DNA of 61,717 nt, from positions 1 through 61,717 of IMG/VR virus record IMGVR_UViG_3300027896_000040; one strand, written 5' to 3'. Made by a program: the position numbers and the translations under genes. The first letter of the stretch is position 1, and the number at the start of each line of letters is the position of its first letter. Below, one piece after another: positions 36,741 to 52,378 of the stretch. The stretch is from a virus (Duplodnaviria > Caudoviricetes). The notes under the pieces are model-generated. The model worked only from the letters and a program-made list of their open reading frames with translations, had not been told where the DNA came from and searched no databases.

Positions 36741-36765
36741 TCAATTATATCTAGTTAAAGAATTA

Positions 36766-37782: not shown

Positions 37783-37826
37783 ATCTAATATAATATATTA
37801 TCTTCTTTGAAATACAACTTTTAAAA

Positions 37827-37882: not shown

Positions 37883-37887
37883 GGAAA

Positions 37888-37962: not shown

Positions 37963-37969
37963 ATGAAAT

Positions 37970-38045
37970 TGGAGCGGCAGATGGGGCTCGAACCCACAAC
38001 ATCCAGCTTGGAAGGATGGCGCTCTACCAATTGAGCTACTACCGC
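37970..38045 (-). tRNA. tRNA-Gly(TCC)
   Basis: Loop CTTCCAA, CCA. Confidence 0.9.
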
Positions 38046-38230
38046 AAATTGGTTAAATCAAACAACGTAAAGTCATTTATTATATCTTCGTACCCTTTAT
38101 CTTGTTTATAAATTTGCAAAATACGGCCATGCTCATAATCTGTAGTAGGGAAGATCTTTGGTTCGTACCCAGGTAAAAAGATTGCCGTGTATGAATGTTG
38201 TCTGTCCACCATTCTACGTATTACCATCAT
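38039..38230 (-). CDS. Hypothetical protein
   Basis: ORF. Confidence 0.5.
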   Translation of the reverse strand: MMVIRRMVDRQHSYTAIFLPGYEPKIFPTTDYEHGRILQIYKQDKGYEDIINDFTLFDLTNLR

Positions 38231-38251
38231 AATAGTCAGATGTGTCTTTAG

Positions 38252-38497
38252 TTACTTCCACTGAACTCTCTTATGGCTTGTCTTCTTTTGTATCTTACCT
38301 TTAATTGATTTGCACTGAGCGTGGGTAGGTCTGCATGCTGGGTACTTATCACCTTTACTCTTTGAAGAGCAAGGACCGCCAGTACGGCAATTAACCCAAC
38401 CTTTAAAACGTTTACCTGTTCTCTTATCAATATGTGGTTTAAACCAATCTCTAAGAGACTCATGTATTAAAGCTATCTGTCTGTCAAACTCTCTCAT
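38252..38497 (-). CDS. Small basic T4-like protein (ESLRDWF...KYPACRP)
   Basis: Motif. Confidence 0.7.
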   Translation of the reverse strand: MREFDRQIALIHESLRDWFKPHIDKRTGKRFKGWVNCRTGGPCSSKSKGDKYPACRPTHAQCKSIKGKIQKKTSHKRVQWK

Positions 38498-38664
38498 TTT
38501 TTCTTTTTAAATGCTTTACCTTTACGGCATTTAGCTAATGCACCCGATGCATAAGCACTTGGCCACACTTTATATCTAGCTTTAACTGCATAATAGCATC
38601 TATCTTTCTTTTCAGATAGCAATTGGTTTTCAATCTCTTCAATCTTACTATTAAACAAGTTCAC
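38494..38664 (-). CDS. Small basic T4-like protein (KVWPSAYASGAL..CRK)
   Basis: Motif; GTG start after TAAATA. Confidence 0.7.
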   Translation of the reverse strand: MNLFNSKIEEIENQLLSEKKDRCYYAVKARYKVWPSAYASGALAKCRKGKAFKKKK

Positions 38665-38685
38665 ACCATTATTTAATGATAAAAG

Positions 38686-38722
38686 TGGTGGGTAAAGAGG
38701 GACTCGAACCCACAACACCCCC
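38686..38722 (-). pseudogene. 3' tRNA fragment (T-arm, acceptor 3' strand, CCA)
   Basis: GTGGGTTCGAGTCCCTCTTTACCCACCA without 5' half. Confidence 0.65.
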
Positions 38723-38750
38723 ACGTATTACGATCATAATATTATTTAAA

Positions 38751-38827
38751 TGGGGCGATAGACGAGATTTGAACTCGCAATCCCAAGATCCACAATCTTG
38801 TGCCTTAACCGTTTGGCCACTACCGCC
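38751..38827 (-). tRNA. tRNA-His(GTG)
   Basis: Loop TTGTGGA, G-1, CCA. Confidence 0.9.
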
Positions 38828-38843
38828 ATTATACAGGAGCAAA

Positions 38844-39155
38844 TTAATCAGATGTGTCTTTTGTGTACCAAACCTTTAATGAAGGTGAAAGGTAGTGGTG
38901 GGTATGCATACCAGTAGACCACTCTAGCCAATCTTTTGTTTCATCAATAATGCTAGTATCAAAATTTGCACCACCATACAAACCACCTATACCACCAAGG
39001 TGCTTATACCCTTGTGGTACCCCTTTTACAAATGTAACTGGTACTTTCTCACCATTTGGGTATTTCCATATTACTTCTTGCGGACCATTAAAACCCCATT
39101 TCTCTGTAACAAAACTATATTGTTCTGCTATTGCGTAATAGTCTTTTGTACTCAT
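38844..39155 (-). CDS. Hypothetical protein
   Basis: From MSTKDYY, TAAATA upstream. Confidence 0.6.
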   Translation of the reverse strand: MSTKDYYAIAEQYSFVTEKWGFNGPQEVIWKYPNGEKVPVTFVKGVPQGYKHLGGIGGLYGGANFDTSIIDETKDWLEWSTGMHTHHYLSPSLKVWYTKDTSD

Positions 39156-39167
39156 GTAATTATTTAA

Positions 39168-39250
39168 TGGTGCCCTGGGAGGGATTCGAACCCTCAAAAA
39201 GCTGCGGTCTAAACGCAGTAGCTGTACCAATTTGCATGTCTCACCGGGGC
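39168..39250 (-). tRNA. tRNA-Leu(TAG), short variable arm, enlarged D-loop
   Basis: CTGCG-TTTAGAC-CGCAG. Confidence 0.85.
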
Positions 39251-39257
39251 ATAAAAA

Positions 39258-39333
39258 TGGTGCACTAGCCGAGACTCGAACTCGGAGTTTCCTGCTTGGC
39301 AAGCAGGTGCATTAACCATTATGCTACTAGTGC
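39258..39333 (-). tRNA. tRNA-Gly(GCC)
   Basis: Loop TTGCCAA. Confidence 0.9.
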
Positions 39334-39358
39334 ATTTAAAATTACTTATCGACTAAAA

Positions 39359-39434
39359 TGGAGCTTCCAGCCGGTATTGAACCGGCCGCCTCAATCTTAC
39401 CAAGATCGCGCTCTACCATCTGAGTTATGGAAGC
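39359..39434 (-). tRNA. tRNA-Thr(GGT)
   Basis: Loop TTGGTAA. Confidence 0.9.
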
Positions 39435-39440
39435 ATAAAA

Positions 39441-39514
39441 TGGTAGGGCCTTCCGGACTTGAACCGATATATGAGAGTTTGCAGACTCTTGCCTGGCCGT
39501 TTGGCTACTGATGC
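39441..39514 (-). pseudogene. Chimeric pseudo-tRNA-Cys(GCA)
   Basis: Acceptor strands GCATCAG/AGGCCCT do not pair; 6-nt anticodon loop. Confidence 0.65.
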
Positions 39515-39520
39515 ATAAAA

Positions 39521-39597
39521 TGGTACACTCGGAGGGATTTAAACCCCCAGCCTTCCGGTCCGTGGCCAGAAGCTCTATTCAGTTGAGCTACAAGTGT
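39521..39597 (-). tRNA. tRNA-Arg(ACG)
   Basis: Loop CCACGGA (C33). Confidence 0.85.
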
Positions 39598-39598
39598 A

Positions 39599-39683
39599 TG
39601 GTGCTCCAGCGGGGAATCGAACCCCGAAAACGACAGATTTTAAGTCTGTAAGCTGTACCGATTCGCTACTACGTCACTGGAGC
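39599..39683 (-). tRNA. tRNA-Leu(TAA), short variable arm, enlarged D-loop
   Basis: ACAGA-CTTAAAA-TCTGT. Confidence 0.85.
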
Positions 39684-39692
39684 GTAAAAAAA

Positions 39693-39779
39693 CGGAAAGG
39701 GAGGGATTCGAACCCCCGGATGCCTTAAAGCATCGGAAGTTTAGTAAACTTCTGCTATAGACCGCTCAGCCACCTTTCC
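39693..39779 (-). tRNA. tRNA-Ser(ACT)
   Basis: GAAGT-TTACTAA-ACTTC, long variable arm, G73, no encoded CCA. Confidence 0.85.
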
Positions 39780-39828
39780 ATAAGAGTGAAATGGTTGTAC
39801 CAGTTTCCTTATTCATATACCCAAACTT

Positions 39829-39915
39829 AGGAAGAGGTGGGATTCGAACCCACGGCCGGCTCTCACCGACATTCGATTTCAAGTCGAGTGCCTTTAACCA
39901 CTCAGCCACTCTTCC
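39829..39915 (-). tRNA. tRNA-Ser(TGA)
   Basis: Loop CTTGAAA, long variable arm. Confidence 0.9.
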
Positions 39916-39922
39916 AAAAAAT

Positions 39923-40016
39923 TGGTAGTCCTGCTCGGAATTGAACCGAGGCTCGGCGCCAATCTAGCGCACACAGTTTATAAGACTGTCGGTGCTTCCA
40001 ATTACACTACAGGACT
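39923..40016 (-). tRNA. tRNA-Ile(TAT) with long variable arm
   Basis: ACAGT-CTTATAA-ACTGT. Confidence 0.8.
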
Positions 40017-40022
40017 AAAAAA

Positions 40023-40096
40023 TGGTTGCCCCCGATCGATTCGAACGATCACAAAGCGGGTCAAAGCCGCGTATCCTACCTTTAGATGAGGGGGCA
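40023..40096 (-). tRNA. tRNA-Gln(TTG)
   Basis: Loop CTTTGAC. Confidence 0.9.
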
Positions 40097-40102
40097 ATAA
40101 AA

Positions 40103-40177
40103 TGGTCGGCGCGGCAAGATTCGAACTTGCGACCATTCCGTCCCAAACGGAACATTCTACCGCTGAACTACGCGCCG
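40103..40177 (-). tRNA. tRNA-Pro(TGG)
   Basis: Loop TTTGGGA. Confidence 0.9.
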
Positions 40178-40239
40178 GTTTTAATAATAAAATTATTAAT
40201 ATATTAGTTGATCTTATCAACTACCAAATGCTTAAATTT

Positions 40240-40478
40240 ACTGTGCCAATACTGGTGATGTGTGGGGTACGTACTGGTAGCTGCTGCAGCATCGCCAGCC
40301 TCTCGTGGTCGAGCAGCCCGCTCACATTTTCCTCTCTTTTTAGTAGGCCAAAAGCAAGGAACCGACTACGGTTACCCCGCCGCGCGTAATTGATGTCGCT
40401 CGATTCTGTTTCCGCAGAAGTCATCACCGCCGATGTTACTTGGTCCGGCTGCGTCGTATTTCAACGATATCGAGCGAT
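40240..40478 (-). ncRNA. Unassigned highly structured RNA with two candidate pseudoknots
   Basis: GC-rich island with at least 8 complementary segments between tmRNA and tRNA-Pro. Confidence 0.7.
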
Positions 40479-40482
40479 AAAT

Positions 40483-40871
40483 TGGTGGAGCTGCCGGGAT
40501 TTGAACCCGGGTGTTCCGTAACTTTCCGATCAGTTTCTACAAGCTTAGTAGTAATAATAAGACCATACCTTAACTACAAGATATTGGAATTTTCAGAATA
40601 CGTGTAACGTTATTTTACCTACTCTGATAATCTCAAACAACGTTCTCACTGTTTAACAGCTACACAATATAGTGAGAATCTATTGTATAACTGATCGCAG
40701 ATTAAGCTGCGAGTGGAGTAACTTCTGGAACAAAAGCTTCGGAAAGCTTTGCGAAGTAACCCTTTACTTTGCTTGTTAATTTAGCATTTATGTTTTTGCT
40801 AGTTTTGAAAGGTCTAACAACCTTGCTTGCTTCTAATAAGTCTGGTACAGAATAGAATCCATAACAGCCCC
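40483..40871 (-). ncRNA. ssrA: tmRNA
   Basis: GGGGCTG/CAGCTCC-ACCA acceptor with G3-U70, T-arm, tag ORF (A)AKLTSKVKGYFAKLSEAFVPEVTPLAA*. Confidence 0.92.
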
Positions 40872-40905
40872 AAAAAATGTGTCAAATAACTAAAAATGTA
40901 TTATA

Positions 40906-41331
40906 TTAATGTTCCAATTGTTTTAAAATTCTATCAAAATCTAAAAAATCTTCATAATAGTTTATACCTTTTGTTTGCCCATTTTTGTCTTGTTAATTCT
41001 AAAAACAAAACCATTTTTTCCCTTTAAATCATCCCAACCTACGTATATGACTTTATCATTTGGTAACAAACAAGCAAACACATCCACGTCTTTTTTTGTA
41101 TATGTAAATTCATAATTTGGACCAGATTTATGTATTGAAAAAGGAATCAAATTATTACTGTTAATAGATGCTAAATTTTTTACTTGTATTTTAATACATT
41201 TATAATCAACAATTGTTATTATATCCACTTTACAAAGATCTCCCAATTCTTTAAATATTGGTAAACCTTTTTTTGTTAACCCCAACGCTACCGCTATCTC
41301 TCCAATATTTCCTTTTTTGTTTACTGTGCAT
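40906..41331 (-). pseudogene. Frameshifted PD-(D/E)XK homing endonuclease (I-Ssp6803I-like family)
   Basis: MHSKQKGNIGE...VDII...IQVK; +1 at A-run 41313-18 and -1 at A-run 40982-86. Confidence 0.7.
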
Positions 41332-41343
41332 TAATAATTATTG

Positions 41344-41376
41344 TTTAATCAGCTATATACAAGGTAGCTGATTAAA
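41344..41376. terminator. 12-bp hairpin (terminator/processing site)
   Basis: TTTAATCAGCTA/TAGCTGATTAAA. Confidence 0.55.
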
Positions 41377-41381
41377 GAAAT

Positions 41382-41647
41382 TGGTGGGGGCATAGGGACT
41401 TGAACCCTAAACCTACTGCTTAACATACCACTATAGCTTTCGCTACATAGCTTTCGCTACTGCGTGGTCTGGACTATGCCTTCACCATTTGACAGGTGGG
41501 TGATTATAGTCTCTACACCTTCCCTTTCGGGCTTGGCTCGGCGTTGGGAGGTTAAACCGTTCACCGAATTTACACCATTCACGTATAATCTTTCGATTAT
41601 AGTGCTCCTATTAAAGGCAGCTGCTCTAACCATTGAGCTATACCCCC
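41382..41647 (-). tRNA. tRNA-Lys(TTT), split by group I intron (exons 41614-41647, 41382-41423)
   Basis: Spliced loop CTT|TTAA in stem GCTGC/GCAGT; GGGGGTA/TGCCCCC acceptor. Confidence 0.85.
41424..41613 (-). mobile_element. ORF-less group I intron (IC3-like, ~190 nt)
   Basis: AAATTCGGTGAA (P), CGCCGAGCCAAG (Q), GTAGAGACTATA (R), GGCATAGTCC (S), terminal G. Confidence 0.85.
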
Positions 41648-41785
41648 ATAAAATAATGGCACCTCTAATCTGGTGCCCAGAGAATTGAAACCTTCGTGCA
41701 CGGCAATATCTAGAAGAGCAGTACACTACATGTCACTCTGTCGCGAAATTGTTAAAAGAACATAACAATTATATCTATGTTCCTA

Positions 41786-42643
41786 TTATCTCAATTCATC
41801 CAAATCTAAAACAGATAACAAAATACCAATATTTTTTAAAACCGTACCGTTCTTTTTATACCATTCATAGCCATTGTTAGCTATGGTTTGTAGTAAGTCA
41901 TTTCTATTGATAATCATGTCATACGTTTCAATCATATTACCCATCATTAGTTTAAAATCACTATGTCTTTCAAATGGAATATAATGCACCCAAGGTAACA
42001 AAGGATTGTGGAATACACAATTGACTATTCTTGGTCTAAGCATCGGTACACCTATACCTAAATATTCAATATCCCTTGTATTGATTTCAGCTGCACCATC
42101 TAAGTTTAATGCAACCTTACACTTAGCTGTTCTAATAAGATAATCTTTAAAATTTGAATCAACATATGGCTTAACTAAAAACTTATCTGATTGTTGCTGT
42201 GAAAGATATTCTCTAAACAAATAAAGTAATCCAGTAAAGAGCATCTGATTTTCTGTTCTTTCAATTTTCATACTCTTTACCTCATCAACATCTCTTTCAT
42301 GCCATATGCAATTGTTAATCCAATATGAAACACCTGTGATAGGAGCACTTGTATGCTTTCTTACCGTAAGTGCATTAGCACAACCATAAAATCTAACTAA
42401 GTTACTATCAAAAATAAAATCGTATGGTCTATCAGGATAGTCAAGATACGAAATCACAATGTGTTTATTAGTTTGTGTATTTCTGATAGCCATCTGACCT
42501 AATGTATTATTCTCTGTAAGCTTTACATTATCTTCACCATACTTTAAGATAAGCTGGTTAATAACCGCATTAAAAATTAATGCTATTGGCCATGACGTAT
42601 CAGTCTTTATTCTACTATGGTAAGCAATTACTTCTAGTTGCAT
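41786..42643 (-). CDS. Glycosyltransferase-like protein
   Basis: KVALNLDG..EINTRDIEY..IGVP, PWVHYIP, TIANNGYEWY. Confidence 0.7.
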   Translation of the reverse strand: MQLEVIAYHSRIKTDTSWPIALIFNAVINQLILKYGEDNVKLTENNTLGQMAIRNTQTNKHIVISYLDYPDRPYDFIFDSNLVRFYGCANALTVRKHTSAPITGVSYWINNCIWHERDVDEVKSMKIERTENQMLFTGLLYLFREYLSQQQSDKFLVKPYVDSNFKDYLIRTAKCKVALNLDGAAEINTRDIEYLGIGVPMLRPRIVNCVFHNPLLPWVHYIPFERHSDFKLMMGNMIETYDMIINRNDLLQTIANNGYEWYKKNGTVLKNIGILLSVLDLDELR

Positions 42644-42655
42644 ATTAATATATAG

Positions 42656-42731
42656 TGGTGGAGATACGGGAACTCGAATCCCGACTTGTTGAATGCAAAT
42701 CAACTGTGCTGCCAATTATCACTATATCCCC
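42656..42731 (-). tRNA. tRNA-Ala(TGC)
   Basis: Loop TTTGCAT, G3-U70. Confidence 0.9.
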
Positions 42732-42838
42732 AGTTTTGAAATTATTTCTGTCAAATAACCATATAACAATTGTTATTTGTTTTCCCATACATTATACTTA
42801 TGTTGGACTACCTTTAAATTAAATTATTGTTGTGCAAA

Positions 42839-42913
42839 TGGTACCCCCACCGGGATTCGAACCCGGATAAACTGCTTGAGAAGCAGACGAACTAACCGCT
42901 ATTCGATAGGGGC
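42839..42913 (-). tRNA. tRNA-Glu(CTC)
   Basis: Loop TTCTCAA. Confidence 0.9.
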
Positions 42914-42919
42914 ATAAAA

Positions 42920-42995
42920 TGGTAGCGACGACGGGATTCGAACCCGTACAAACCGCTGTGAAAGAGCGGTGACCTAGCCATTAGTCCACGTCGCC
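42920..42995 (-). tRNA. tRNA-Glu(TTC)
   Basis: Loop CTTTCAC. Confidence 0.9.
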
Positions 42996-43182
42996 ATGTT
43001 ATCATATAATTCATAATATACTCGCCTAGTCGAGTAAAATTGATCATTTTAGGTTGGGGAGACTCCTGACTACTCCCAGCATTTGTACACATTCAGTTAT
43101 TCAGTCAGTTGAAACTGTCGTCTCTAATGCGCCGTCATATCAGATGTATTTTATCTACATAGGTGTTTAAAGAACGAAAGAA

Positions 43183-43670
43183 TTATATACTAGTTCCATT
43201 GGCTGTAAGTTTTTTCAAAAATCGTTTAAGAGCAACAACTGCTCTTTTTTTGTACAAAAATCCTTTTAATTCTGAGTCCGGATAATCTTTACCAAAGTCT
43301 TCAACTGTATTTACATGTACACTAAAATCTACCTTATTATTTCTTATCATTTTTGCAAGTTCAACTCCGGTACCTCCTAGAACTTAAAATTTTTCAGCTA
43401 TTTGATTTAAAATCTTTGGATCGTTTACTGTATAAAAGATTTTATCACCATCTGATGCAGGATCGAGACCGACCGTTGTTATCTTTAATACTGGAGTACC
43501 ATTTTTGTATATAAAAGATATAACATCTGTTGGAAGCTGATATTCACTAGATACTAACATTAAGTCATTTTGATAATCTAAAAAATCAAAACAACTATCT
43601 TCATCTAACTGTTGGTGATCAACAATAAAATGCGGTAGTTACTCTCAAAGAAGAATGTTTTAAACGACAT
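43183..43670 (-). pseudogene. Disrupted late gene (MSFKTFFFES...)
   Basis: 1-nt frameshift near 43640 and in-frame TAA at 43384-86. Confidence 0.6.
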
Positions 43671-43687
43671 GTAACTATTTATTAAAA

Positions 43688-43764
43688 TGGTGCTGAGGGT
43701 CCGACTTGAACGGACGACAACCGGTGTGTAGGACCGATGCTCTAACCAACTGAGCTACCCCAGC
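43688..43764 (-). tRNA. tRNA-Val(TAC)
   Basis: Loop CCTACAC (C33). Confidence 0.88.
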
Positions 43765-43770
43765 ATAAAA

Positions 43771-43846
43771 TGGTAGGAGAGATGGGATTTGAACCCATAT
43801 ATAGCACCTTATGACGGTGATGCCTTATCTGTCGAGCCACTCTCCT
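43771..43846 (-). tRNA. tRNA-Met/Ile2(CAT)
   Basis: Loop GTCATAA; paired 1-72, so not initiator. Confidence 0.8.
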
Positions 43847-43849
43847 GTA

Positions 43850-43885
43850 AAATAAAGAGCTCCGTTAAATTGCTTTAACGGAGCG
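43850..43885 (-). terminator. Intrinsic terminator inside tRNA array
   Basis: GCTCCGTTAAA/TTTAACGGAGC plus U-rich tail. Confidence 0.7.
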
Positions 43886-43896
43886 TTGTTTTCTTT

Positions 43897-44082
43897 TTAT
43901 AAGCTACGGAATATGATGCCGTTATATGCTGGGTCTTTCACACTCATAATCTTTTGATAATATGAAGTGTTATTACCCTTGTAATCATTTATAGCGAGTA
44001 CAATAATTCCGGCAACAGCTCCGTATGCTATAGCTAATACTATAATCATACGTTTTTGTGTCTTTCTTGTTAGAACCGCCAC
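43897..44082 (-). CDS. Small membrane protein
   Basis: One TM segment. Confidence 0.5.
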   Translation of the reverse strand: MAVLTRKTQKRMIIVLAIAYGAVAGIIVLAINDYKGNNTSYYQKIMSVKDPAYNGIIFRSL

Positions 44083-44194
44083 CTGAAGGCTTTGGTTGTT
44101 GAAAATTATTTATTATAGATACTAGTAAAACCTAATTGGAATACCATAGAAGTTAACTATGGTATCTATAACTAGAATTAACTATAAAGGAAAA

Positions 44195-44269
44195 TGGCTG
44201 CTCGGGTTCGGATCGAACGAACGACTCTTCGCTTAACAGGCGAGCACTCTGCCCCTGAGTTACCGAGCA
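44195..44269 (-). tRNA. tRNA-Asn(GTT)
   Basis: Loop CTGTTAA. Confidence 0.9.
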
Positions 44270-44278
44270 ATAAAAAAA

Positions 44279-44352
44279 CGGGATGCACGAGGGTTGAACT
44301 CGTGACCTTTTGATTGACAATCAAACGCTCTGACCAGCTGAGCTAGCACCCC
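44279..44352 (-). tRNA. tRNA-Asp(GTC)
   Basis: Loop TTGTCAA; no encoded CCA. Confidence 0.9.
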
Positions 44353-44361
44353 ATATTAAAT

Positions 44362-44478
44362 TGGCAGGAGCGGTAAGACTTTAACTTACGACTGATCTAA
44401 AGTACGCTTTAGACCCGGCTCAACTTCAAACCTAAGCTTCTCGCTCGTCAGCTTATCGCCTTTGGCACCAGCGCTCCT
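44362..44478 (-). ncRNA. 117-nt atypical tRNA-like RNA
   Basis: Perfect acceptor AGGAGCG/CGCTCCT-GCCA and T-arm; two hairpins in D region; 8-nt anticodon loop; long variable arm. Confidence 0.75.
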
Positions 44479-44492
44479 ATGTTTAATAAAAT

Positions 44493-44566
44493 TGGCACGG
44501 ATACAAGGAGTTAAACCCTGACAGAATCTTTTGGAGAGATTCGTGCTATCATTACACTATATCCGT
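44493..44566 (-). tRNA. tRNA-Trp(CCA)
   Basis: Loop CTCCAAA. Confidence 0.88.
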
Positions 44567-44579
44567 AAATTCCTTGAAA

Positions 44580-44672
44580 TGGTGGGCAAGGAGGGAATCG
44601 AACCCCCAATGTTACTCGAAAGAGAACGGATTTACAGTCCGTTGCTACACAACCAATAGTAGCCTCTTACCC
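44580..44672 (-). tRNA. tRNA-Tyr(GTA)
   Basis: ACGGA-CTGTAAA-TCCGT; 5' end overlaps HNH stop codon. Confidence 0.88.
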
Positions 44673-45404
44673 TTTATAGCATTTTCTAGGTATAGGGGTA
44701 TATTCAGGTATAAATTTTTTCCATAATTTACACAAACTCGTTAAAGAGTAATTATATTCTTTTTGTGTGTGTAAGAAATCTCTGACTGACCTACAACCGC
44801 TACTTAAAAAATTATTATATAGTTTTCTTGCAAAAACTTGTTTATTATGCTGCCTTTCTAGTTGTCTTTTTTTGTTTAAAACGTCTTTTTCCTGTTTGAT
44901 TTTCTTACGCGTAGCTTTTTTAACTTGTTTTTGGTAATTTAGTTCCTGTCTTTTATTAAAACTATCAAAATTAATAACTCTACCTTTACGCCAACCTTCA
45001 GGTATAATGTCGGTTTTGTTAATGCGTTTAGACTGTCTTAAGACAGGGTTATGTATCCATTTCATATTAAAACATTGATTGTTACTGCCTTTATTTGCTA
45101 TTGAATTATGTTTACCTATTGCTAGAGCATGTTTACGTTTTAGCCAACCATAAAGTTTATTATTAAATCTTCCACAGCACATTTTATGAGCAGCAAACAC
45201 TAACAAGGAGTTATTAGGGTATATCTTTACAAGCAATTGATGTGCAACATAATGCTCTTCCGGAGTCAAAGCAACTAGATTATTGGGATCATCAGACCCA
45301 CCCATACATTTGGGTATAACGTGATGCTTTTCAGTGTAACCTTCTAAAGAAGTTCTACTCTTAGCTTTTTCAATTAATCTTTCATATATTAAACTGTAGT
45401 TCAC
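44667..45404 (-). CDS. Free-standing HNH homing endonuclease (MobE-like)
   Basis: EKHHVIPKCMGGSDDPNNLVALTPEEHYVAHQLL; GWRKGR DNA-binding motif. Confidence 0.88.
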   Translation of the reverse strand: MNYSLIYERLIEKAKSRTSLEGYTEKHHVIPKCMGGSDDPNNLVALTPEEHYVAHQLLVKIYPNNSLLVFAAHKMCCGRFNNKLYGWLKRKHALAIGKHNSIANKGSNNQCFNMKWIHNPVLRQSKRINKTDIIPEGWRKGRVINFDSFNKRQELNYQKQVKKATRKKIKQEKDVLNKKRQLERQHNKQVFARKLYNNFLSSGCRSVRDFLHTQKEYNYSLTSLCKLWKKFIPEYTPIPRKCYKG

Positions 45405-45457
45405 TCTGTTAATATTTATGCTAGAACAGGTCAACCTCATGACTTTTAATTAAAAAA

Positions 45458-45496
45458 GTTTACAGTCTTCTGCAGTTGCCGCTGTGCCATACTCCC
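45458..45496 (-). pseudogene. 5' half of tRNA-Tyr(GTA), truncated after anticodon loop
   Basis: GGGAGTATGGCACAGCGGCAACTGCAGAAGA-CTGTAAA then unrelated sequence. Confidence 0.75.
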
Positions 45497-45672
45497 AAGA
45501 AAAGGGAGAGAGTGTTTGGTTATGAGACTTATTCCGTAGTGCGTAGATCCTACCGCGTACATCCCGGTAGCAGTACCCTTAACTCTCTATAAAATTTTTG
45601 CAGTGTCAGCAGAAATTATCACCCGACGTTTCATTACCCGAGGGTTATCTGGTTACTGGCGGGTCTGCAAAG

Positions 45673-45761
45673 TGGAGGCTCCTCCCGGACTCGAACCGAG
45701 AAACGACTTTCGTCTATGCTTCTTTACAAAAGAAGTCCTGTACCAATTGAGGCAAGGAGCC
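45673..45761 (-). tRNA. tRNA-Thr(TGT) with long variable arm
   Basis: CTTCT-TTTGTAA-AGAAG; V-arm GAC-GAAA-GTC. Confidence 0.85.
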
Positions 45762-45931
45762 AAAACTAATAAAAAAATTGGCCCGGCAGTTATTTAAAGA
45801 CGTCCGGGGCTCGTCTATATATTATTGAAACAAAGAACTTATTAATCTTGCCCCTCTCAGCTTTTGATTTACTGGTTTGGACACCCATTGTCGGTCGTTT
45901 GGGCTAGTTATGGCACTAGCCTGGCATTAAT

Positions 45932-45991
45932 AAAAAAACCCTAAGCTTTTTAGGTCTTAGGGTTTTAAATGTATAAAAAGATTTAAACCCT
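45932..45991 (-). promoter_or_regulatory. Attenuator: overlapping antiterminator and intrinsic terminator
   Basis: AGGGTTTAAAT/ATTTAAAACCCT competes with AAAACCCTAAG/CTTAGGGTTTT + U7. Confidence 0.8.
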
Positions 45992-46069
45992 TCAACACGA
46001 ATCGCGTGGTCCTACATAACCTGTATTAGGTAATGTAAACCATTTAATTGCCTGTTGTGTTTCTATCAT
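45992..46069 (-). CDS. Leader peptide MIETQQAIKWFTLPNTGYVGPRDSC (25 aa)
   Basis: Between promoter 46088-46103 and attenuator; stop abuts antiterminator strand. Confidence 0.75.
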   Translation of the reverse strand: MIETQQAIKWFTLPNTGYVGPRDSC

Positions 46070-46087
46070 TGTTATTAATATTTATAT

Positions 46088-46103
46088 ATTATAAACCTGT
46101 TCC
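46088..46103 (-). promoter_or_regulatory. GGAAC-N5-TATAAT promoter (with TATAAATA immediately downstream) heading the tRNA array
   Basis: Instance of a motif seen more than 20 times in the window. Confidence 0.75.
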
Positions 46104-46105
46104 AA

Positions 46106-46750
46106 TTAATCAATATGTAAATAAGGTTTCCATTCATCTCTTATGGTGAAGTTTTCTGGGATAATGGAAGCGTACATACTGCTAATTTTTGGATTAACTT
46201 CTTTACCATCGACATCAAAGTAAGGGTATTTGTTATCCTTGGCACTATTGCAAGAACGGCAAGCAAGTACGAGGTTAAAGTCATGATTAGTACCACCTAA
46301 AGATCTCGGATAAAGATGGTCTTTAGTTGCTTCTGACATAGAAACCTTTTCATAGCAGTACTGGCAAATACCTTTATAAACAGAGTAAAGATATTTGAGT
46401 GAAACATATTCACCTGTTTTACGTCTGTAACCGAAATGGTAATTACACAATAGTATGGTTGGTACTGCCCATTGCTTTTCAGTACCGATTACTGGGTCTG
46501 GAGCACTACGAAGACAAGGTTGGTCCTCGAAAAGAGATACTTCATTATTGTACCAACGTAAAGTGCTTGGTGTGTTTCCAAGTTGAATATCAGTACCAGA
46601 CCACGATACAATGTTACCCATTGCATCGATACCTTTAACTCTATCAGTCATAAGGTGTCTAATAGCAGCTCTAGCTGTAACTAAAGCAATAGCTTGGTGG
46701 TTGCGGTTGAGTAAAAGAGAAGTTTTTTCTTGTGGTTGTACTGCTTTCAT
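46106..46750 (-). CDS. HNH endonuclease (McrA-type)
   Basis: CQYC...TKDHLYPRSLGG....NLVLACRSCNSAKDN. Confidence 0.88.
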   Translation of the reverse strand: MKAVQPQEKTSLLLNRNHQAIALVTARAAIRHLMTDRVKGIDAMGNIVSWSGTDIQLGNTPSTLRWYNNEVSLFEDQPCLRSAPDPVIGTEKQWAVPTILLCNYHFGYRRKTGEYVSLKYLYSVYKGICQYCYEKVSMSEATKDHLYPRSLGGTNHDFNLVLACRSCNSAKDNKYPYFDVDGKEVNPKISSMYASIIPENFTIRDEWKPYLHID

Positions 46751-46782
46751 AAAAAAAGCCTAGAAAATTAATTCTAGGCTTT
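46751..46782 (-). terminator. Intrinsic terminator
   Basis: AAAGCCTAGAA/TTCTAGGCTTT plus U-tract. Confidence 0.8.
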
Positions 46783-46807
46783 TGAATTAGAATTAATAAT
46801 TTATATT

Positions 46808-47350
46808 TTATCTATGTTCCCGCTCGCGAGGGTTTCTATGTTTTATCTCTTGATGGTTATAAAAATGTTCACTTTCGTGACCTAAACGCAATGGGCGGTG
46901 CCAAAACCCAACATACCAGTTTACAAATGCATTGTACGGGTAATAAGTTGATACCCACATAACACCATTCCATTGATAAACAAATACATATTCTGGGTAA
47001 CCTAATTGATTAATAGGGCCGTAACCGTACTGAATAAACGGGTTTCCAGTTGATATAAACTCAACAACTACTGGAGCTCCAGGGGGTACAGGGGTACAAA
47101 CAACTGCTGCACCTACTGGGGGTGCTGGTGTCTGTACAATTACCGGTTTCTGTTGATTTTGTTCAATAGCATTACCAATTACACCTCCTACAATGGCACC
47201 AGCAACTGCTCCTGCTACGGGAGCGTGGTTATTAGCACCAATTAAAGCCCCAGCTACTGCACCTACTGCGGCACCGTCCGCTGTGGTTTGTTGAGCATTT
47301 ACCGTTGCAGTAAATGCTAACACTGCGATGATAGGTATAATGTTTTTCAT
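46808..47350 (-). CDS. Secreted glycine-zipper protein
   Basis: Signal peptide; GAAVGAVAGALIG...GAVAGAIVGGVIG. Confidence 0.75.
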   Translation of the reverse strand: MKNIIPIIAVLAFTATVNAQQTTADGAAVGAVAGALIGANNHAPVAGAVAGAIVGGVIGNAIEQNQQKPVIVQTPAPPVGAAVVCTPVPPGAPVVVEFISTGNPFIQYGYGPINQLGYPEYVFVYQWNGVMWVSTYYPYNAFVNWYVGFWHRPLRLGHESEHFYNHQEIKHRNPREREHR

Positions 47351-47385
47351 ACGTTTATATTTATATCAATATTTTTAAAAAAAGT

Positions 47386-47418
47386 AAGAGCCTAAGCTAT
47401 TAATAGCCTAGGCTCTTT
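47386..47418 (-). terminator. Probable terminator hairpin
   Basis: AAGAGCCTAAGCTA/TAGCCTAGGCTCTT. Confidence 0.65.
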
Positions 47419-47431
47419 TATAAGACAAATC

Positions 47432-47656
47432 TTAGGCGACTGTAACCTGAGAGTTGCGGAGAGCAGTAAGGAAATTACGGCTATCAACACGAACCCAATC
47501 TGCCTCATATTGGTTAACAACATCGAGCATCTTGGTCTCATTGCCTACGATTGTAAAGTTACCACTACGATCGCGCTCGAGCGTAACGGTAAATGTCTTT
47601 GGACGAATGTCACGATTGCTGAGATATTCATTCCACTGTTCGTTTGGATTTTTCAT
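47432..47656 (-). CDS. Hypothetical protein
   Basis: ORF. Confidence 0.55.
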   Translation of the reverse strand: MKNPNEQWNEYLSNRDIRPKTFTVTLERDRSGNFTIVGNETKMLDVVNQYEADWVRVDSRNFLTALRNSQVTVA

Positions 47657-47715
47657 ACACCACTATTATAACGGGGGTTTTATAATATCCACTTTATTTT
47701 TCAATAAATAATAGT

Positions 47716-48387
47716 ATGTCATATAATCCGTACCTTATCTCGCGTAACATCCGCGACATGGAATACAACAAGTACACCGAAATTGTAAATGATACACGTT
47801 TTCCTCAAATCACATCTGTAATTCAAAGTTATGATATTGGTCCAACAGGCCAACCACAGGCACAGACAAACTATTATAATAAGACAGCTGAGTTGGTGTA
47901 CTTGGTTAACGCCAGTGATATTAACCAAAACATTACATTATCTGCTACAAACATTCAAGTAAGTAATGTTGGTATTACAGGTGTTGCAGCAGTTAGTGGC
48001 ACTGTTAACGTTCAAACAAATGGTACGTATGCAATTGCAGTATCATCAAATAATACAAATGTAACCAATACGGTAGCAGTAAGTGGTAACGTAGCAGCAA
48101 CAGGCAATGTTGGTGTTGCAGCTGCTACAAATTGGTACGTGACACAAGTTCAAGTTACAACAGCAGGCTTTACACCATTCCCATCATTAACAGGTAGAGT
48201 AGCTACGGTTGTTAATACAACTGGTGATACATTATTGTTAACAAGGGCTGGGCAAGGTATTGCATTGCCATTCTTAAATAACTCTTCATTGGACATCACT
48301 TTAACTAACAACGTAAGTGAAATTCAATTAAAAGCTCAGACATTGGTAACCCCTGGTTCAGCTTACGCTTTAGTAACAAACTATTGA
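47716..48387 (+). CDS. Probable virion structural protein
   Basis: V/T/N-rich beta-strand composition; TAAATA upstream. Confidence 0.6.
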   Translation: MSYNPYLISRNIRDMEYNKYTEIVNDTRFPQITSVIQSYDIGPTGQPQAQTNYYNKTAELVYLVNASDINQNITLSATNIQVSNVGITGVAAVSGTVNVQTNGTYAIAVSSNNTNVTNTVAVSGNVAATGNVGVAAATNWYVTQVQVTTAGFTPFPSLTGRVATVVNTTGDTLLLTRAGQGIALPFLNNSSLDITLTNNVSEIQLKAQTLVTPGSAYALVTNY

Positions 48388-48389
48388 TA

Positions 48390-48581
48390 ATGGCAACAAA
48401 ATATTCATTAGCACCACCCACAAAACCTTTACAAACAGTGCCCGCTGCTTCTAAAGGCAAAAAAAGGGATGCTTTTGGTATGGTATCTAATGATACAAAT
48501 TACTTTTATTACTGTACAGGAAACTACGGCGGTATTACTAATATATGGTGCCGCGTATCTAATACAGGAGCTTCATTCTAA
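48390..48581 (+). CDS. Small tail-fibre-associated protein
   Basis: DTNYFYYCT...WCRV motif. Confidence 0.6.
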   Translation: MATKYSLAPPTKPLQTVPAASKGKKRDAFGMVSNDTNYFYYCTGNYGGITNIWCRVSNTGASF

Positions 48582-49687
48582 TGTCCTCAAACTATAATAT
48601 TGGTTTTCAAAACCCTTACACCAACTCTGCATGTAATAATGTGTTAAGTGCAGTTGGTGGGTTTACCACGGCAGGTATTTTTACTGTCAACGGTAACTCA
48701 ACATCAACCACAACAATAAGTGGTGGTTCTTTTTATATGCATGTACCTTATGTGTCAGGTGGTACGGGAGGTGCATTTAATTTAGTTGGTTCTAGTAGTG
48801 GTGCTTATCAAAATATTATTAATGCTGGTGACTTGTTCCATGTAACTGGTAATGACAACACTCAAACAAGAATTACATTTGACGGCTTTGGGTTATCAGC
48901 AACAAATTTAAACCCAAACCAAAACGCGTTCCCCAATTTAATTATAAGAAGTGCTAGAGGTACGGTAGCTACCCCATCAGGCCTTTCAGCGGGTGATGTT
49001 TTAGGCCGTATAACGTTTAACGGTTATCAAGGCAGTTCATATTTACCACCAGGATCTGCTCAAGGTCAGAATTACTTACAGTACGTTGCAACGAGTAACT
49101 ACACCGCTTCAGCAGCAAGTTCTCAAGTTCAATTCTGGCTAGCCCCAACTGGGACGAATCAAAGTACACTTGCATTAGCTTTAGATTCATATGCATTATC
49201 TTCAAACAATATTGAAGTAAATCCAGGCAATGCAATTATATTTAGTGATAATTCAGCTCAAACAACAGCATTCTACCAGTTAACAGGTACTTGGACACCT
49301 AAACTGTCAAGTTCAAATAACGGTTCGGGTATATCAGCAACTAATGTAACATCCGGTGTTTATATTAAATCGGGAAAACAAGTATACTGTACTTTTATTA
49401 TTACCTTAAGTTCAATTGACTCAGCTTCAGGCAACGTTTATCTTTATAATTTACCTTACCCAGTTGCCATCGGTAATACAATTTGGGGTGATTGTAGAGT
49501 AACAAGCTTTGCTGCTTCAAACGGCCAGTTAATTGGTATTGTAGGTGATAATAGTGGTTCGTTGCAAGACTTTACCTTGTACGGTATTTACCGTAATAGT
49601 GGTGGAGGTAGTAATAACTTACAAGTATCAGACTTGGGAGCTACTGCATACCTTAAAGGAGCTATAAACTACGTTGCTGCTTATTAA
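48581..49687 (+). CDS. Tail fibre-like protein
   Basis: RSARGT...GDVLGRITFNGY; GTWTP...GVYIKSGKQV...LPYP. Confidence 0.7.
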   Translation: MSSNYNIGFQNPYTNSACNNVLSAVGGFTTAGIFTVNGNSTSTTTISGGSFYMHVPYVSGGTGGAFNLVGSSSGAYQNIINAGDLFHVTGNDNTQTRITFDGFGLSATNLNPNQNAFPNLIIRSARGTVATPSGLSAGDVLGRITFNGYQGSSYLPPGSAQGQNYLQYVATSNYTASAASSQVQFWLAPTGTNQSTLALALDSYALSSNNIEVNPGNAIIFSDNSAQTTAFYQLTGTWTPKLSSSNNGSGISATNVTSGVYIKSGKQVYCTFIITLSSIDSASGNVYLYNLPYPVAIGNTIWGDCRVTSFAASNGQLIGIVGDNSGSLQDFTLYGIYRNSGGGSNNLQVSDLGATAYLKGAINYVAAY

Positions 49688-49924
49688 TCACTCAAGCATT
49701 ACTTGATTGTATTCGTTAATTTTCTGAGAGATGTAAATTATTTCCATTTGAAAATCTCTCATTGAAGAACAATTAACTTGAGACCTGTAAATGCACTGAG
49801 CTTTACTATTCTCTACTAATACCTCATTTAAACTGGTATCGTAAACGCTAATAAACCCTGACTTGTCGTAAATGTAAAGATAACCATTTACGGTTGTATT
49901 ATAAACAATATCGTTCTTATTCAT
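49688..49924 (-). CDS. Hypothetical protein
   Basis: ORF. Confidence 0.5.
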   Translation of the reverse strand: MNKNDIVYNTTVNGYLYIYDKSGFISVYDTSLNEVLVENSKAQCIYRSQVNCSSMRDFQMEIIYISQKINEYNQVMLE

Positions 49925-50109
49925 TAGTTCAAATCCAAAACAATTTGTCTATCGAACTCAATAATAGCCTCTCCAGCTTTATTATCTCTAAATTGCTTCA
50001 AAACACATAGAAGCGTTTCAACGTGCTTTACGTCAACAACTTGTTTATCCTGAATTTCTCTTTCTATAGAAATAATAATTCTATCCAAATTCTCGTAATT
50101 CATGCACAT
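49924..50109 (-). CDS. Hypothetical protein
   Basis: ORF. Confidence 0.5.
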   Translation of the reverse strand: MCMNYENLDRIIISIEREIQDKQVVDVKHVETLLCVLKQFRDNKAGEAIIEFDRQIVLDLN

Positions 50110-50327
50110 ACGTTCTTAGAAAAATTCTTTATAGCAGACCTTGCGCCATTAGCATCGTAATAATGCTTAGTTTTTTCAAATGACTCCTTTGTAAAAATCT
50201 CAATCTCACCAGCAGTCTTATGCGCGTAACACATTCTTCCAAACCTATTGCGTTCCTTCTCACGTGGAACAAAATTAGGATCAGTAAAAATGCCCAGTTC
50301 AATTAGTTTTTTAATGGTATCGTTCAT
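50100..50327 (-). CDS. Hypothetical protein
   Basis: ORF. Confidence 0.5.
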   Translation of the reverse strand: MNDTIKKLIELGIFTDPNFVPREKERNRFGRMCYAHKTAGEIEIFTKESFEKTKHYYDANGARSAIKNFSKNVCA

Positions 50328-50339
50328 ACATGTATTATA

Positions 50340-50807
50340 TCAATTTTCCTTGTATTTTGAATGGTTGTAAAATTGTTTCTTTGTAGTAATAAGATTGTTG
50401 TAAAGTTTAAGTACCTTTTCACTCATTTCCATCTCAAACCTATCAGCATCTAACTCAACCGGTGAGCCAAGATAAGACTTAACTGTTGATTCATCATAGT
50501 TCTTTTTAGTTAGCGGTATCTTAAAAATTTTATCTTGCATGAAGTGTCTGAATTCATGAAGTAAATATGAGTTCATTTTTTTAAAATTTTTTACAATATG
50601 GCTAACATGTACACGGACAAATCTACCACTCTGAAACCTGTAAAAAGAGTAGTTATACTTTGTCTCATGCAAATACAATACATAACTACGTTTCCTTTTT
50701 ACTTTATAAACGCTATCAAAAATGATTGAATAAACCAAAGAAAGGGTATTAAAATCTACGCCTTTATACTTTAGTTTGAATTGCTTAGTTGGTTTAAAAA
50801 CAATCAT
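50340..50807 (-). CDS. HExxH metallopeptidase-like protein
   Basis: LLHEFRHFMQ...Y...PVELDA. Confidence 0.65.
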   Translation of the reverse strand: MIVFKPTKQFKLKYKGVDFNTLSLVYSIIFDSVYKVKRKRSYVLYLHETKYNYSFYRFQSGRFVRVHVSHIVKNFKKMNSYLLHEFRHFMQDKIFKIPLTKKNYDESTVKSYLGSPVELDADRFEMEMSEKVLKLYNNLITTKKQFYNHSKYKEN

Positions 50808-50815
50808 TTGAAAAG

Positions 50816-50901
50816 TGGTAGGGGTGAACGGACTCGAACCGTTACGACCTTCCGGTCAACAGATTTTAAGTCTATAGTGTCTACCATTCCACCACACCCC
50901 C
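50816..50901 (-). tRNA. tRNA-Leu(TAA), canonical long variable arm
   Basis: ATAGA-CTTAAAA-TCTGT, CCA. Confidence 0.92.
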
Positions 50902-50909
50902 ATCTTATA

Positions 50910-51887
50910 TTAATTAGTTACCAAACCCCCATTAACCATTGTAGTAAAATTACTATTAGTTGGAATGTTGAGTTTAAAATTCTTTGCAGTTACCTTATAC
51001 ACCGCCTTATCACCGCGACCATACTTCTTGATATCATCCCTATAACACAACTCCTTAAGTATCACATAAGCCTGTGATGAAGTAATATCAAGCTCCTTCA
51101 TCACCCTCTTCTTCGTAATGTAAGGTGGTTCAATCATGGCAATAACCTTTTTCATTTGCTCTTTCATACGCTGCTCCTTAGAGAGAGCTTTTTCAGCAAC
51201 CTGCTTACGTCCGGTAAAAATAAATCCCTTATCAGTAAGAAGGCTTGTAAATTCGTTGCAAGGACCAAATCTATTCTTTGAAAACGTAATGATACGTGCC
51301 CTATCATCACCAGAAGCTTCATCAATGGTAATTTCCATATTAACATCAACGGTATGGGGAATAAGAGTACCACCCTTAAGCACACCAGCTTTGGTAAGGT
51401 GCATTACGAAAAAGATTGCACATTCATTTCCCTTTGCAGCATTTACAAGAGAAGTAATTGCATAGTGCTCTTTCTCTCTTGAGTTCATATCTGTCTTTGT
51501 AGAAAGAGCTTGAAATGAATCAACAACGATAGCGTCGAACGTCTCAGTTGCCTTTACTAGCTCATCAATATCAGTAATGTTAGCAATACAGAGATTGGTT
51601 ACATTAAGACGTTTGCAATTAAAAGCTAGCTGAGTAATATTTTCCTCACCAGAAGCATAACCAACATTGTAACCGGTCTTAGCAAGAGCTTCAAACACTT
51701 GTAGCAAGAAAGTAGTCTTACCACAACCTGCCTTGGCAGTTACAGTAAAAGAAGACCCAGGTAGAATACCATTACCAAATAGTTCGTCAATTTCAGTAAT
51801 GCCAGTCTTGAACCTTCTATAAAATATATCAGGTATTTGAATATCTGAAACTCTTGTAAAAGAGGTCTCTTGTAGATTAAGATTCAT
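50910..51887 (-). CDS. RadA/Sms-like RecA-family ATPase
   Basis: AKAGCGKTT, YASGEE, VVDSFQ, HLTKAG, KNRFG; lacks Zn finger and Lon domain. Confidence 0.85.
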   Translation of the reverse strand: MNLNLQETSFTRVSDIQIPDIFYRRFKTGITEIDELFGNGILPGSSFTVTAKAGCGKTTFLLQVFEALAKTGYNVGYASGEENITQLAFNCKRLNVTNLCIANITDIDELVKATETFDAIVVDSFQALSTKTDMNSREKEHYAITSLVNAAKGNECAIFFVMHLTKAGVLKGGTLIPHTVDVNMEITIDEASGDDRARIITFSKNRFGPCNEFTSLLTDKGFIFTGRKQVAEKALSKEQRMKEQMKKVIAMIEPPYITKKRVMKELDITSSQAYVILKELCYRDDIKKYGRGDKAVYKVTAKNFKLNIPTNSNFTTMVNGGLVTN

Positions 51888-51908
51888 ACGTTTATTGTAT
51901 CAATGTTC

Positions 51909-52316
51909 CTAGACAAACTTAGTTACATCACGGTTAAAATGTTTCCTAAAATTGGACGCAATAGTTTGCATCTCATTCTTGACACGGGCAATAGCTTCCT
52001 GATTGAAGTTATCTTTAAGATTTTCAATGCAAGCCTTGTAACATATTACAAGATAATCAGAATATGCATTTAATGAGAACTGATCATCTGTATAACCATC
52101 ATCTTCGAGCTTTTTCTTAGCTGCACTCTTTTGTGCATAATGCTTAAGAAAATACTCAAAGTTATTCTTGTAATGCTTTTTGATGAGCTTTTCAAGAAAC
52201 TTGTGGTATATAGGTACAAATTCGCCGGTAATGTTACACTTGGCTTTGTACGAAGATGGAATCTGCTGCACTCCGTCAGCAAACTCGTATAAGTGAAATT
52301 TAGCTTTTCTTGCCAT
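51909..52316 (-). CDS. Hypothetical protein
   Basis: Leaderless promoter. Confidence 0.6.
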   Translation of the reverse strand: MARKAKFHLYEFADGVQQIPSSYKAKCNITGEFVPIYHKFLEKLIKKHYKNNFEYFLKHYAQKSAAKKKLEDDGYTDDQFSLNAYSDYLVICYKACIENLKDNFNQEAIARVKNEMQTIASNFRKHFNRDVTKFV

Positions 52317-52378
52317 ACTATATTATGTCACAGTTCCTCACTCAAACTGTTATCATAAATTAGGAACTCGTGTATAAT

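Follow-up and report, generated by a model that had tools for sequence, protein, structure and literature searches.

Among the described leader-peptide attenuators are those of the amino acid operons of Enterobacteria, namely trp, his, leu, thr, ilv, and phe, of which the thr leader, rich in threonine and isoleucine codons, is nearest in flavor to the phage leader treated here. Attenuators induced by antibiotics, such as those of erm and cat, need a specific arrest peptide together with the drug, and T-box riboswitches bind tRNA directly and need no open reading frame (ORF). In mycobacteria, leaderless short poly-Cys ORFs act as cysteine-responsive attenuators in cellular operons, according to the part of the preprint accessible to us (bioRxiv 10.1101/834739). 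The tRNA genes of phages reportedly gain importance once tRNA-targeting defense acts on the tRNAs of the host (PMC11555353). Regulation of phage tRNAs by tRNA supply would thereby have a plausible reason. The timing and dosing of phage tRNA-array expression are largely unknown. Here, we analyze a short leader ORF, a terminator/antiterminator switch, and the tRNA array behind them in IMG/VR record IMGVR_UViG_3300027896_000040, a 61.7-kb record of an uncultured freshwater phage with 35.7% G+C, estimated to be about 25% complete; this whole stretch is referred to as the window.

An earlier note, made from the letters of the window alone, had proposed that a promoter, a 25-codon ORF, an antiterminator, and a terminator on the minus strand constitute a leader-peptide attenuator in front of the tRNA array. 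Each of these parts is present at the position given there (Table 1), and all four are conserved, with covariation, in relatives, which upholds the proposal as to anatomy; translation of the ORF is a reading of this arrangement. Every structural part of a ribosome-dependent attenuator is found in the anatomy of the locus. The region of leader and switch folds better than 200/200 shuffles (z = -4.06). We consider it likely that the element is a ribosome-dependent (leader-peptide) transcription attenuator that heads a phage tRNA operon and provides feedback on tRNA supply.

Relatives were gathered from IMG/VR and metagenomes with independent anchors, namely the HNH protein encoded upstream of the leader, an RNA element downstream of the switch, and the antiterminator helix. 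All searches together yielded 19 distinct ATG-started leaders of 23 to 32 codons. The relatives keep the ORF and the antiterminator along with the terminator: the ORF is maintained in 19/19 distinct homologous leaders, a hairpin with a T run behind it is found in 13/13 representatives (-10.4 to -17.2 kcal/mol), and the 3' strand of the antiterminator overlaps the 5' strand of the terminator by 4 to 9 nt in 11/11. In the window, the antiterminator pairs 45991..45981 with 45970..45959 (11 pairs, one bulged A, -6.2 kcal/mol), and the terminator pairs 45966..45956 with 45945..45935 (11 pairs, 10-nt loop, -12.2 kcal/mol). The overlap of 7 nt bears out the claim that the two helices are mutually exclusive. 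Seven T (45938..45932) follow a GGG, four of them lying inside the terminator stem. The loop of this hairpin, exceeding 8 nt, kept it from being picked up in a generic terminator scan. The stop codon of the leader lies at or inside the antiterminator 5' strand in 10/11 representatives; in the window, the exception, it lies directly before this strand, which starts at +3. The more distant L088 as well as L121, both found later, show the same switch design and the same placement of the stop codon.

The segment shared by the two helices differs in sequence among three clades, and both of its partner strands change along with it. For the antiterminator (alignment A6, 11 sequences), 91.5% of the alignment cells were paired versus 80.5 +/- 1.8 in shuffles, with 0/500 shuffles as high, even though the 5' strand of L005 is misplaced and the 3' strand of the window is shifted by one column by its bulge, both being partly counted as unpaired. 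Six of the 14 antiterminator pairs had changed on both sides (5/500 shuffles as high), and helices in slid registers were 22 to 61% paired. The formal pair count covers the antiterminator; in the MAFFT alignments of the whole switch (A4) and of the terminator (A5), rows stand in differing registers. In most relatives, the antiterminator is at least as stable as the terminator (-11.3 to -25.5 versus -10.4 to -17.2 kcal/mol). No similar switch was seen after the internal promoter at 43182 or before the tRNA-Leu gene at 50901.

Several observations indicate that the leader is maintained as a reading frame. In ten representative leaders, stop codons number 0 in the leader frame versus 12 and 16 in the alternative frames. 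When the 102 nt upstream of the fixed stop codon were shuffled, an ATG-started ORF of at least 22 codons ending at this stop arose in 2.0 to 4.1% of shuffles per lineage, giving a product over six lineages of 4.6e-10 if these were independent, which they are only partially. The ORF stays open across lineages whose DNA no longer aligns, and the leader peptides are highly divergent, BLAST having aligned no L007 leader to the leader of the window. As judged from these comparisons, what is conserved in the leader is an open frame, its length of about 25 to 30 codons, and the position of its end. Among strains of this phage in four DNA runs, with five differences in all, the sole change inside the ORF, at 45998, is synonymous (TCG to TCC), and a variant at 45945 converts a G-C pair of the terminator to G-U.

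These data also bear on a reading without regulation, in which the hairpins would simply mark where the HNH transcript ends or insulate the tRNA genes, and the ORF would be accidental or encode a small protein with its own function. The terminator does lie 140 nt past the HNH gene, the antiterminator of the window is weak, and short ORFs are frequent, with 61 of at least 20 codons within 44500-48500. However, leader and switch also occur without an HNH gene directly upstream (L121, L025) and have their own promoter, the frame is kept open where the DNA of the lineages no longer aligns, the stop codon holds its place in a covarying helix, and the peptide varies more than a conserved protein function would allow. 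We therefore regard an unregulated arrangement as highly improbable.

The family-wide coding signal of the leaders is the enrichment of ACA and TCA, with the recurrence of ACA being the strongest component. In ten representatives, ACA occurs 21 times versus 4.84 expected and is present in 10/10 (P = 3e-8), and TCA occurs 13 times versus 3.69 expected (P = 1e-4). Both enrichments are specific to the leader frame, the counts in the three frames, leader frame first, being 21/4/11 for ACA and 13/5/5 for TCA. Against nucleotide shuffles, 6.7 +/- 2.5 ACA codons were expected, and 0/20,000 shuffles reached the observed count. At least two ACA codons are present in 14/16 leaders, including those of a clade with low amino acid diversity and of L088; when one leader per lineage was considered, the P values for ACA were 0.01 to 0.10 each. 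The earlier note had stated that only ACA recurs in the leader. ACA does occur three times in the leader of the window, but the enrichment of ACA and TCA across the family had escaped it. A-ending codons make up 40.5% of leader codons versus 24.3% in long ORFs.

The codons enriched in the leaders are those read by the tRNA-Thr(UGU) and tRNA-Ser(UGA) that head the arrays. A tRNA array follows leader and switch in every locus with enough downstream DNA, with up to 25 tRNA genes. Thr(TGT) is the first tRNA in 15/16 loci holding any downstream tRNA and the second in L066, and Ser(TGA) comes next in 14/15 loci with at least two tRNAs, the window being the exception. In agreement with what had been claimed, the switch of the window precedes the tRNA array, and the first downstream tRNA is Thr(TGT) at 45673..45761.

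Amino acid diversity is a second property of the leader. The window leader comprises 19 amino acid types in 25 residues and 23 distinct codons, counts given correctly in the earlier note. Its suggested comparison with random protein windows places the 19 types above background, with P = 0.0012 for 31,815 windows of these phages' proteins; for random draws, P was 0.0005. The 23 distinct codons of 25 gave P = 0.02. Among 412 spurious ATG ORFs of 23 to 30 codons from the same DNA, 4 had at least 18 types and 1 at least 19; taken alone, a single ORF of this kind in 62 kb is therefore a mild surprise at most. Across the family, 18 to 20 types are found in 14/19 distinct leaders, versus a null expectation of 13.3 to 15.3 types for 23 to 32 residues. 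The L037-type leader holds all 20 types in 28 residues (P = 3e-4), and P values for the high-diversity leaders other than this type and the window range from 0.008 to 0.076. The distinct-codon counts of the diverse leaders are likewise high (P = 0.004 to 0.07). As to composition, Trp is enriched 2.3-fold and Cys 2-fold, and Leu (0.34), Lys (0.54), and Asp (0.43) are depleted. The remaining 5/19 leaders, with 14 to 16 types, are at or near the null. Four of them form a clade (L033, L046, L055, L063) with 14 or 15 types, P = 0.33 to 0.64, and the same switch; in L121, which differs by three residues from L007, Phe and Cys have been lost, leaving 16 types.

It has to be asked whether the leader was selected for sampling nearly all amino acids and thereby for inducing replacement tRNAs upon loss of any one charged tRNA, as the pan-codon design proposed in the earlier note implied. 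The large share of leaders with 18 to 20 types, the peptides' wide divergence at a high type count, the extremes represented by the L037 type and the window, the enrichment of rare and depletion of common residues, and the high distinct-codon counts speak for such a sensor. The clade with 14 or 15 types and the loss of Phe and Cys in L121, both with the switch intact, speak against it, as do the 4/412 spurious short ORFs that also reach 18 types and the shared ancestry that inflates pooled significance. In addition, the last four or five codons could hardly report a stall, as a ribosome held there would already mask the antiterminator. The pan-codon claim thus fits most leaders and finds no support in this clade and L121; similarly, the expectation that homologs would keep diversity while diverging in sequence holds for most of the divergent peptides, with one clade at chance. 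High diversity is common and was probably selected in part of the family, and it is probably not a defining property. We regard selection for a response to every amino acid as a doubtful, though serious, account of the leader.

The following sequence of events can be envisaged. Transcription would start at the promoter 46103..46088, and the short ORF would be translated at once. A ribosome reaching the stop codon would cover 45991..45981, so that the terminator 45966..45932 could form and the transcript would end. If the ribosome were held earlier or were absent, 45991..45981 would pair with 45970..45959 and sequester part of the terminator 5' strand, and RNA polymerase would read through a structured RNA of about 150 nt into the first block of tRNAs. 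Stalling would in this way lead to read-through: a ribosome delayed on ACA or TCA, or for most lineages on nearly any codon, would favor the antiterminator. The switch would most likely provide feedback on the supply of tRNA-Thr(UGU) and tRNA-Ser(UGA), and lineages with leaders of 18 to 20 types would respond to charged tRNAs generally. It is tempting to speculate, and we do so only tentatively, that the leader serves as a miniature test translation that reads ACA, TCA, and in most lineages nearly all amino acids, by which the phage would sense tRNA supply. Array and structured RNA would be switched on when host tRNAs are scarce or destroyed, be it by anticodon nucleases or by other tRNA-targeting defenses, and off once the phage tRNAs have refilled the pool.

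Constrained folding is in part consistent with these steps. With a ribosome placed at the stop codon, 13/13 representatives form the full terminator; in the ribosome-free state, the minimum-energy fold of 8/13 contains the antiterminator and lacks the terminator, which makes "on" the predicted default state. These folds represent equilibrium, and the real choice falls during transcription. The same behavior would be expected if the switch were a general sensor of translation capacity, in which slowing or lack of ribosomes raises read-through and the codon content is secondary; few ribosomes early in infection, a translation-blocking defense, or antibiotics would be possible triggers. The lack of conservation of the peptide sequence and the presence of a tmRNA gene within the same array fit this explanation as well. 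However, it accounts neither for the frame-specific enrichment of ACA and TCA nor for the raised amino acid diversity in most lineages, and we consider it unlikely.

A number of findings weigh against feedback attenuation by tRNA supply or limit its reach. The antiterminator of the window is the weakest of the family, bulged, and at -6.2 versus -12.2 kcal/mol inferior to the terminator, which wins at equilibrium in every modeled state; therefore, the switch of the window could work only kinetically. Its TGA stop codon comes two codons earlier than the stop in most relatives. The terminator remains the minimum-energy fold without a ribosome in 5/13 representatives, and a modeled stall on an ACA or TCA codon fails to free the antiterminator in some cases, among them L026 and L046. 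On the coding side, A is abundant at each of the three codon positions of the leader region, and CAA, also enriched, was rejected as a codon signal since its enrichment is not frame-specific. The exact-cognate match between leader codons and array tRNAs was not significant and at background level in 4/4 loci. The claim that most leader codons have a cognate tRNA in the array does not rise above chance for the window, where exact Watson-Crick matches number 12/24 versus 41.5% of codons in long ORFs (P = 0.26). The leaders are not phylogenetically independent, and their pooled P values are too small. Moreover, the switch appears to be dispensable, as 5/19 related unique sequences are without it. 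Because of the internal promoters described below, only the first tRNA block can depend on the switch, and the terminal hairpin and T run of the structured RNA may halt transcripts before they reach the tRNAs.

The promoter assigned to the leader belongs to a recurrent type of this phage. The motif GGAAC-N5-TATAAT was found at 39 sites of the window with at most one mismatch, 23 of them exact, versus 7.06 +/- 2.51 in shuffles, 0/100 of which reached 39. Many copies sit a few bases ahead of the ATG of long ORFs, often by 6 nt; examples of this promoter-like motif are at 75-90, 3887-3902, 16098-16113, 40900-40915, and 52322-52337. L005 and L013 have the same motif at the same place before the leader, and by eye, other clades have a sigma-70-like -35/-10 pair at this position instead. 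A box of the TATAAATA type lies 6 to 18 nt ahead of the leader ATG or the RNA element in L013, L026, L032, and L018. If the second box of the window at 46079..46086 acted as a promoter, a nearly leaderless mRNA would result. A strong Shine-Dalgarno sequence precedes only 3/53 long ORFs of the window, and its lack at the leader is thus normal for this phage, several mRNAs of which are probably leaderless or nearly so. On the minus strand from 46088 to 43197, no copy of the motif was detected, leaving the RNA element, tRNA-Thr, a homing endonuclease gene, and the next tRNAs without another promoter of that type. The internal promoters at 43182, 41768, and 40900, raised as a caveat in the earlier note, are exact copies of the motif. 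A generic sigma-70 scan was uninformative, with 56 sites versus 52.4 in shuffles.

Directly after the terminator lies the structured RNA (45925..45771), which the earlier note had missed and which would first be transcribed after read-through. It comprises several hairpins, with compensatory changes in 9/23 predicted pairs (alignment of 12 sequences) and several invariant single-stranded stretches, and by eye its terminal hairpin, at 45771-45800 in the window, shows long-range pairing with a compensating change in L121. The RNA element occurs in every related locus, whether or not a leader is there, copies being located, for example, at L037:3783-3942, L026:3877-4026, L046:7809-7961, and L018:3701-3854. 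A small RNA gene and a part of the tRNA operon that acts in cis are both conceivable identities. Rfam searches at E <= 1 (window 36000-52000; L026, L037, L046) returned only tRNA, tmRNA, and weak chance hits and matched neither the RNA element nor a T-box nor any of the amino acid operon leader families. Many relatives carry further conserved noncoding pieces between the RNA element and tRNA-Thr that are absent from the window. These include a piece of about 70 nt that looks like a small multi-arm fold and, in some relatives, an insert of about 87 nt (sites at L037 ~3943-4008, L005 ~8550-8620, L007 ~8290-8440, and L026 ~4027-4180).

ARAGORN identified 22 tRNA genes and a tmRNA gene in the window, 21 of the tRNAs being downstream of the switch on the same strand. 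The first of them, the 89-nt tRNA-Thr(TGT) with a long extra arm, had no match to the Rfam tRNA model at E <= 1, and the first tRNA of the relatives is an ordinary Thr(TGT) of 75 to 76 nt. Also unusual among the ARAGORN predictions are a tRNA-Ser with anticodon ACT and a 94-nt tRNA-Ile(TAT), at 39692-39780 and 39923-40016 (minus strand). The tmRNA gene (40483-40871, minus strand; Rfam, 109.7 bits) lies inside the array, directly behind the promoter motif copy at 40900-40915. Two homing/HNH endonuclease genes, at 44667-45440 and 46106-46750 (both minus strand), flank or interrupt the first tRNA block, and the HNH family was found in several other genomic contexts among related contigs (L015, L016, L020, L022, L028).

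Table 1. Positions in the window of the leader, the switch, and the adjoining features
Feature	Position	Strand	Evidence
Promoter, recurrent phage type (GGAAC, 5 bases, TATAAT)	46088..46103	-	Exact motif copy
Second -10-like box TATAAATA, 9 nt before leader ATG	46079..46086	-	Sequence; putative promoter role
Leader ORF, 25 codons + TGA, no Shine-Dalgarno sequence	45992..46069	-	ORF list
Antiterminator 5' strand, from first base after stop codon onward	45981..45991	-	Pairing
Antiterminator 3' strand, 7 nt common to terminator 5' strand	45959..45970	-	Pairing
Putative intrinsic terminator: 11-bp stem, 10-nt loop, T run	45932..45966	-	Hairpin, -12.2 kcal/mol
Conserved structured RNA, ~150 nt, 3' end formed by hairpin + T run	45771..45925	-	Alignment of 12 sequences
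First array tRNA, Thr (anticodon TGT), 89-nt form	45673..45761	-	ARAGORN
HNH endonuclease gene, upstream neighbor, outside switch	46106..46750	-	Pfam HNH_5 + HNH; PHROGs HNH endonuclease

The relatives were retrieved by five routes: an exact terminator pattern sorted by BLAST, alignment of the HNH protein, two RNA-element patterns, the antiterminator helix, and one metagenome scan. The first RNA-element pattern gave 19 unique related sequences, with leader and switch present in 14/19 and the switch absent from 5/19. In one of the latter, L041 (= L057), the promoter and the first ~8 leader codons are kept at 3600-3670, and the remainder of the leader is deleted together with antiterminator and terminator, the leader frame running on into the RNA element after the deletion. 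The second RNA-element pattern matched 27 new unique sequences, 2 of which belong to the family, namely L088/L110 with a new leader and L106, which is the contig of L013; the other 25/27 were chance matches. The metagenome scan, whose pattern demanded a form of the RNA element absent from the window's own type, gave 9 loci, with only L075 and L080 being new relatives and L077 being the contig of L013. Nine of the 11 loci found with the antiterminator pattern are family members, and the other two, L123 and L124, were dismissed as chance matches. In the first scan with the terminator pattern, 9/11 loci were unrelated palindromes. L047 contributes an extra leader whose start codon, TTG, has the usual spacing to the -10-like box.

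Database comparisons did not place the phage. GenBank phages had no blastn match to window 45500-46800; in GenBank, window 44001-52000 matched homing-endonuclease pieces only and the L046 and L037 queries matched tRNA genes only, and the GenBank phage comparison yielded no cultured relative and no host name. None of the at least 120 matching loci listed for bacterial genomes shows the hallmarks of the element, and no host or cellular homolog emerged from them. Ten large proteins annotated with PHROGs did not yield a taxonomic placement either.

If the switch senses tRNA supply, it would have no known precedent among attenuators in controlling tRNA genes through the availability of tRNA, and it would represent a regulated form of counter-defense. 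A leader-peptide switch before the array would mean that the phage measures decoding capacity directly and adjusts tRNA supply by feedback. The finding ties classical attenuation to work on tRNA-targeting defense and its countering by phage tRNAs, and it offers a compact natural sensor of tRNA availability, with clades of 14 or 15 versus 18 to 20 amino acid types as natural variants for asking what the leader senses. Our analysis also reveals the conserved structured RNA heading the arrays. A full-text literature search found no description of a leader-peptide attenuator ahead of tRNA genes in the accessible portions of the texts. The report on tRNA-targeting defense concerns, in its accessible part, the function of phage tRNAs and not a leader-peptide switch controlling them (PMC11555353).

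Compared with systems described previously, the phage element shares parts with several of them. Like T-box riboswitches, it would sense tRNA status via a choice between terminator and antiterminator; unlike them, it has a conserved ORF. As in antibiotic-induced stalling attenuators, a stalled leader ribosome would free an alternative pairing and turn the downstream genes on (see also PMC6851288), whereas the phage peptide, unlike those of the erm and cat attenuators, is not conserved. With the mycobacterial ORFs, as described in the available portion of the preprint, it has in common a short ORF at or near the 5' end of the transcript that lacks a Shine-Dalgarno sequence and whose translation would set downstream expression. 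In contrast to the poly-Cys ORFs, as characterized there, its readout is a predicted intrinsic terminator and its targets are tRNA genes (bioRxiv 10.1101/834739).

The resemblance to the attenuators of Enterobacteria extends to a short ORF at the 5' end, here with presumed translation, an intrinsic terminator ahead of the genes under control, an antiterminator that has one strand in common with the terminator and would be masked by a ribosome at the stop codon, and the enrichment of particular codons, here ACA and TCA. Unlike in those systems, the targets are phage tRNA genes and an RNA element and not biosynthetic enzymes, the regulatory codons are scattered (2 or 3 ACA, 0 to 2 TCA) without runs, most leaders sample 18 to 20 amino acids, and the leader is without a Shine-Dalgarno sequence, its 5' untranslated region probably being very short. 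The 1:2 hairpin of trp, in which the coding region pairs with the antiterminator strand, is absent from the window, where the coding region folds on itself and not with 45991..45981; no search aimed at a conserved pairing of this kind was made. Also unlike in the trp type, the untranslated state is predicted to favor read-through, in keeping with the terminator's absence from the ribosome-free fold in 8/13 representatives. The mechanism is classical, and the target and the leader design are new.

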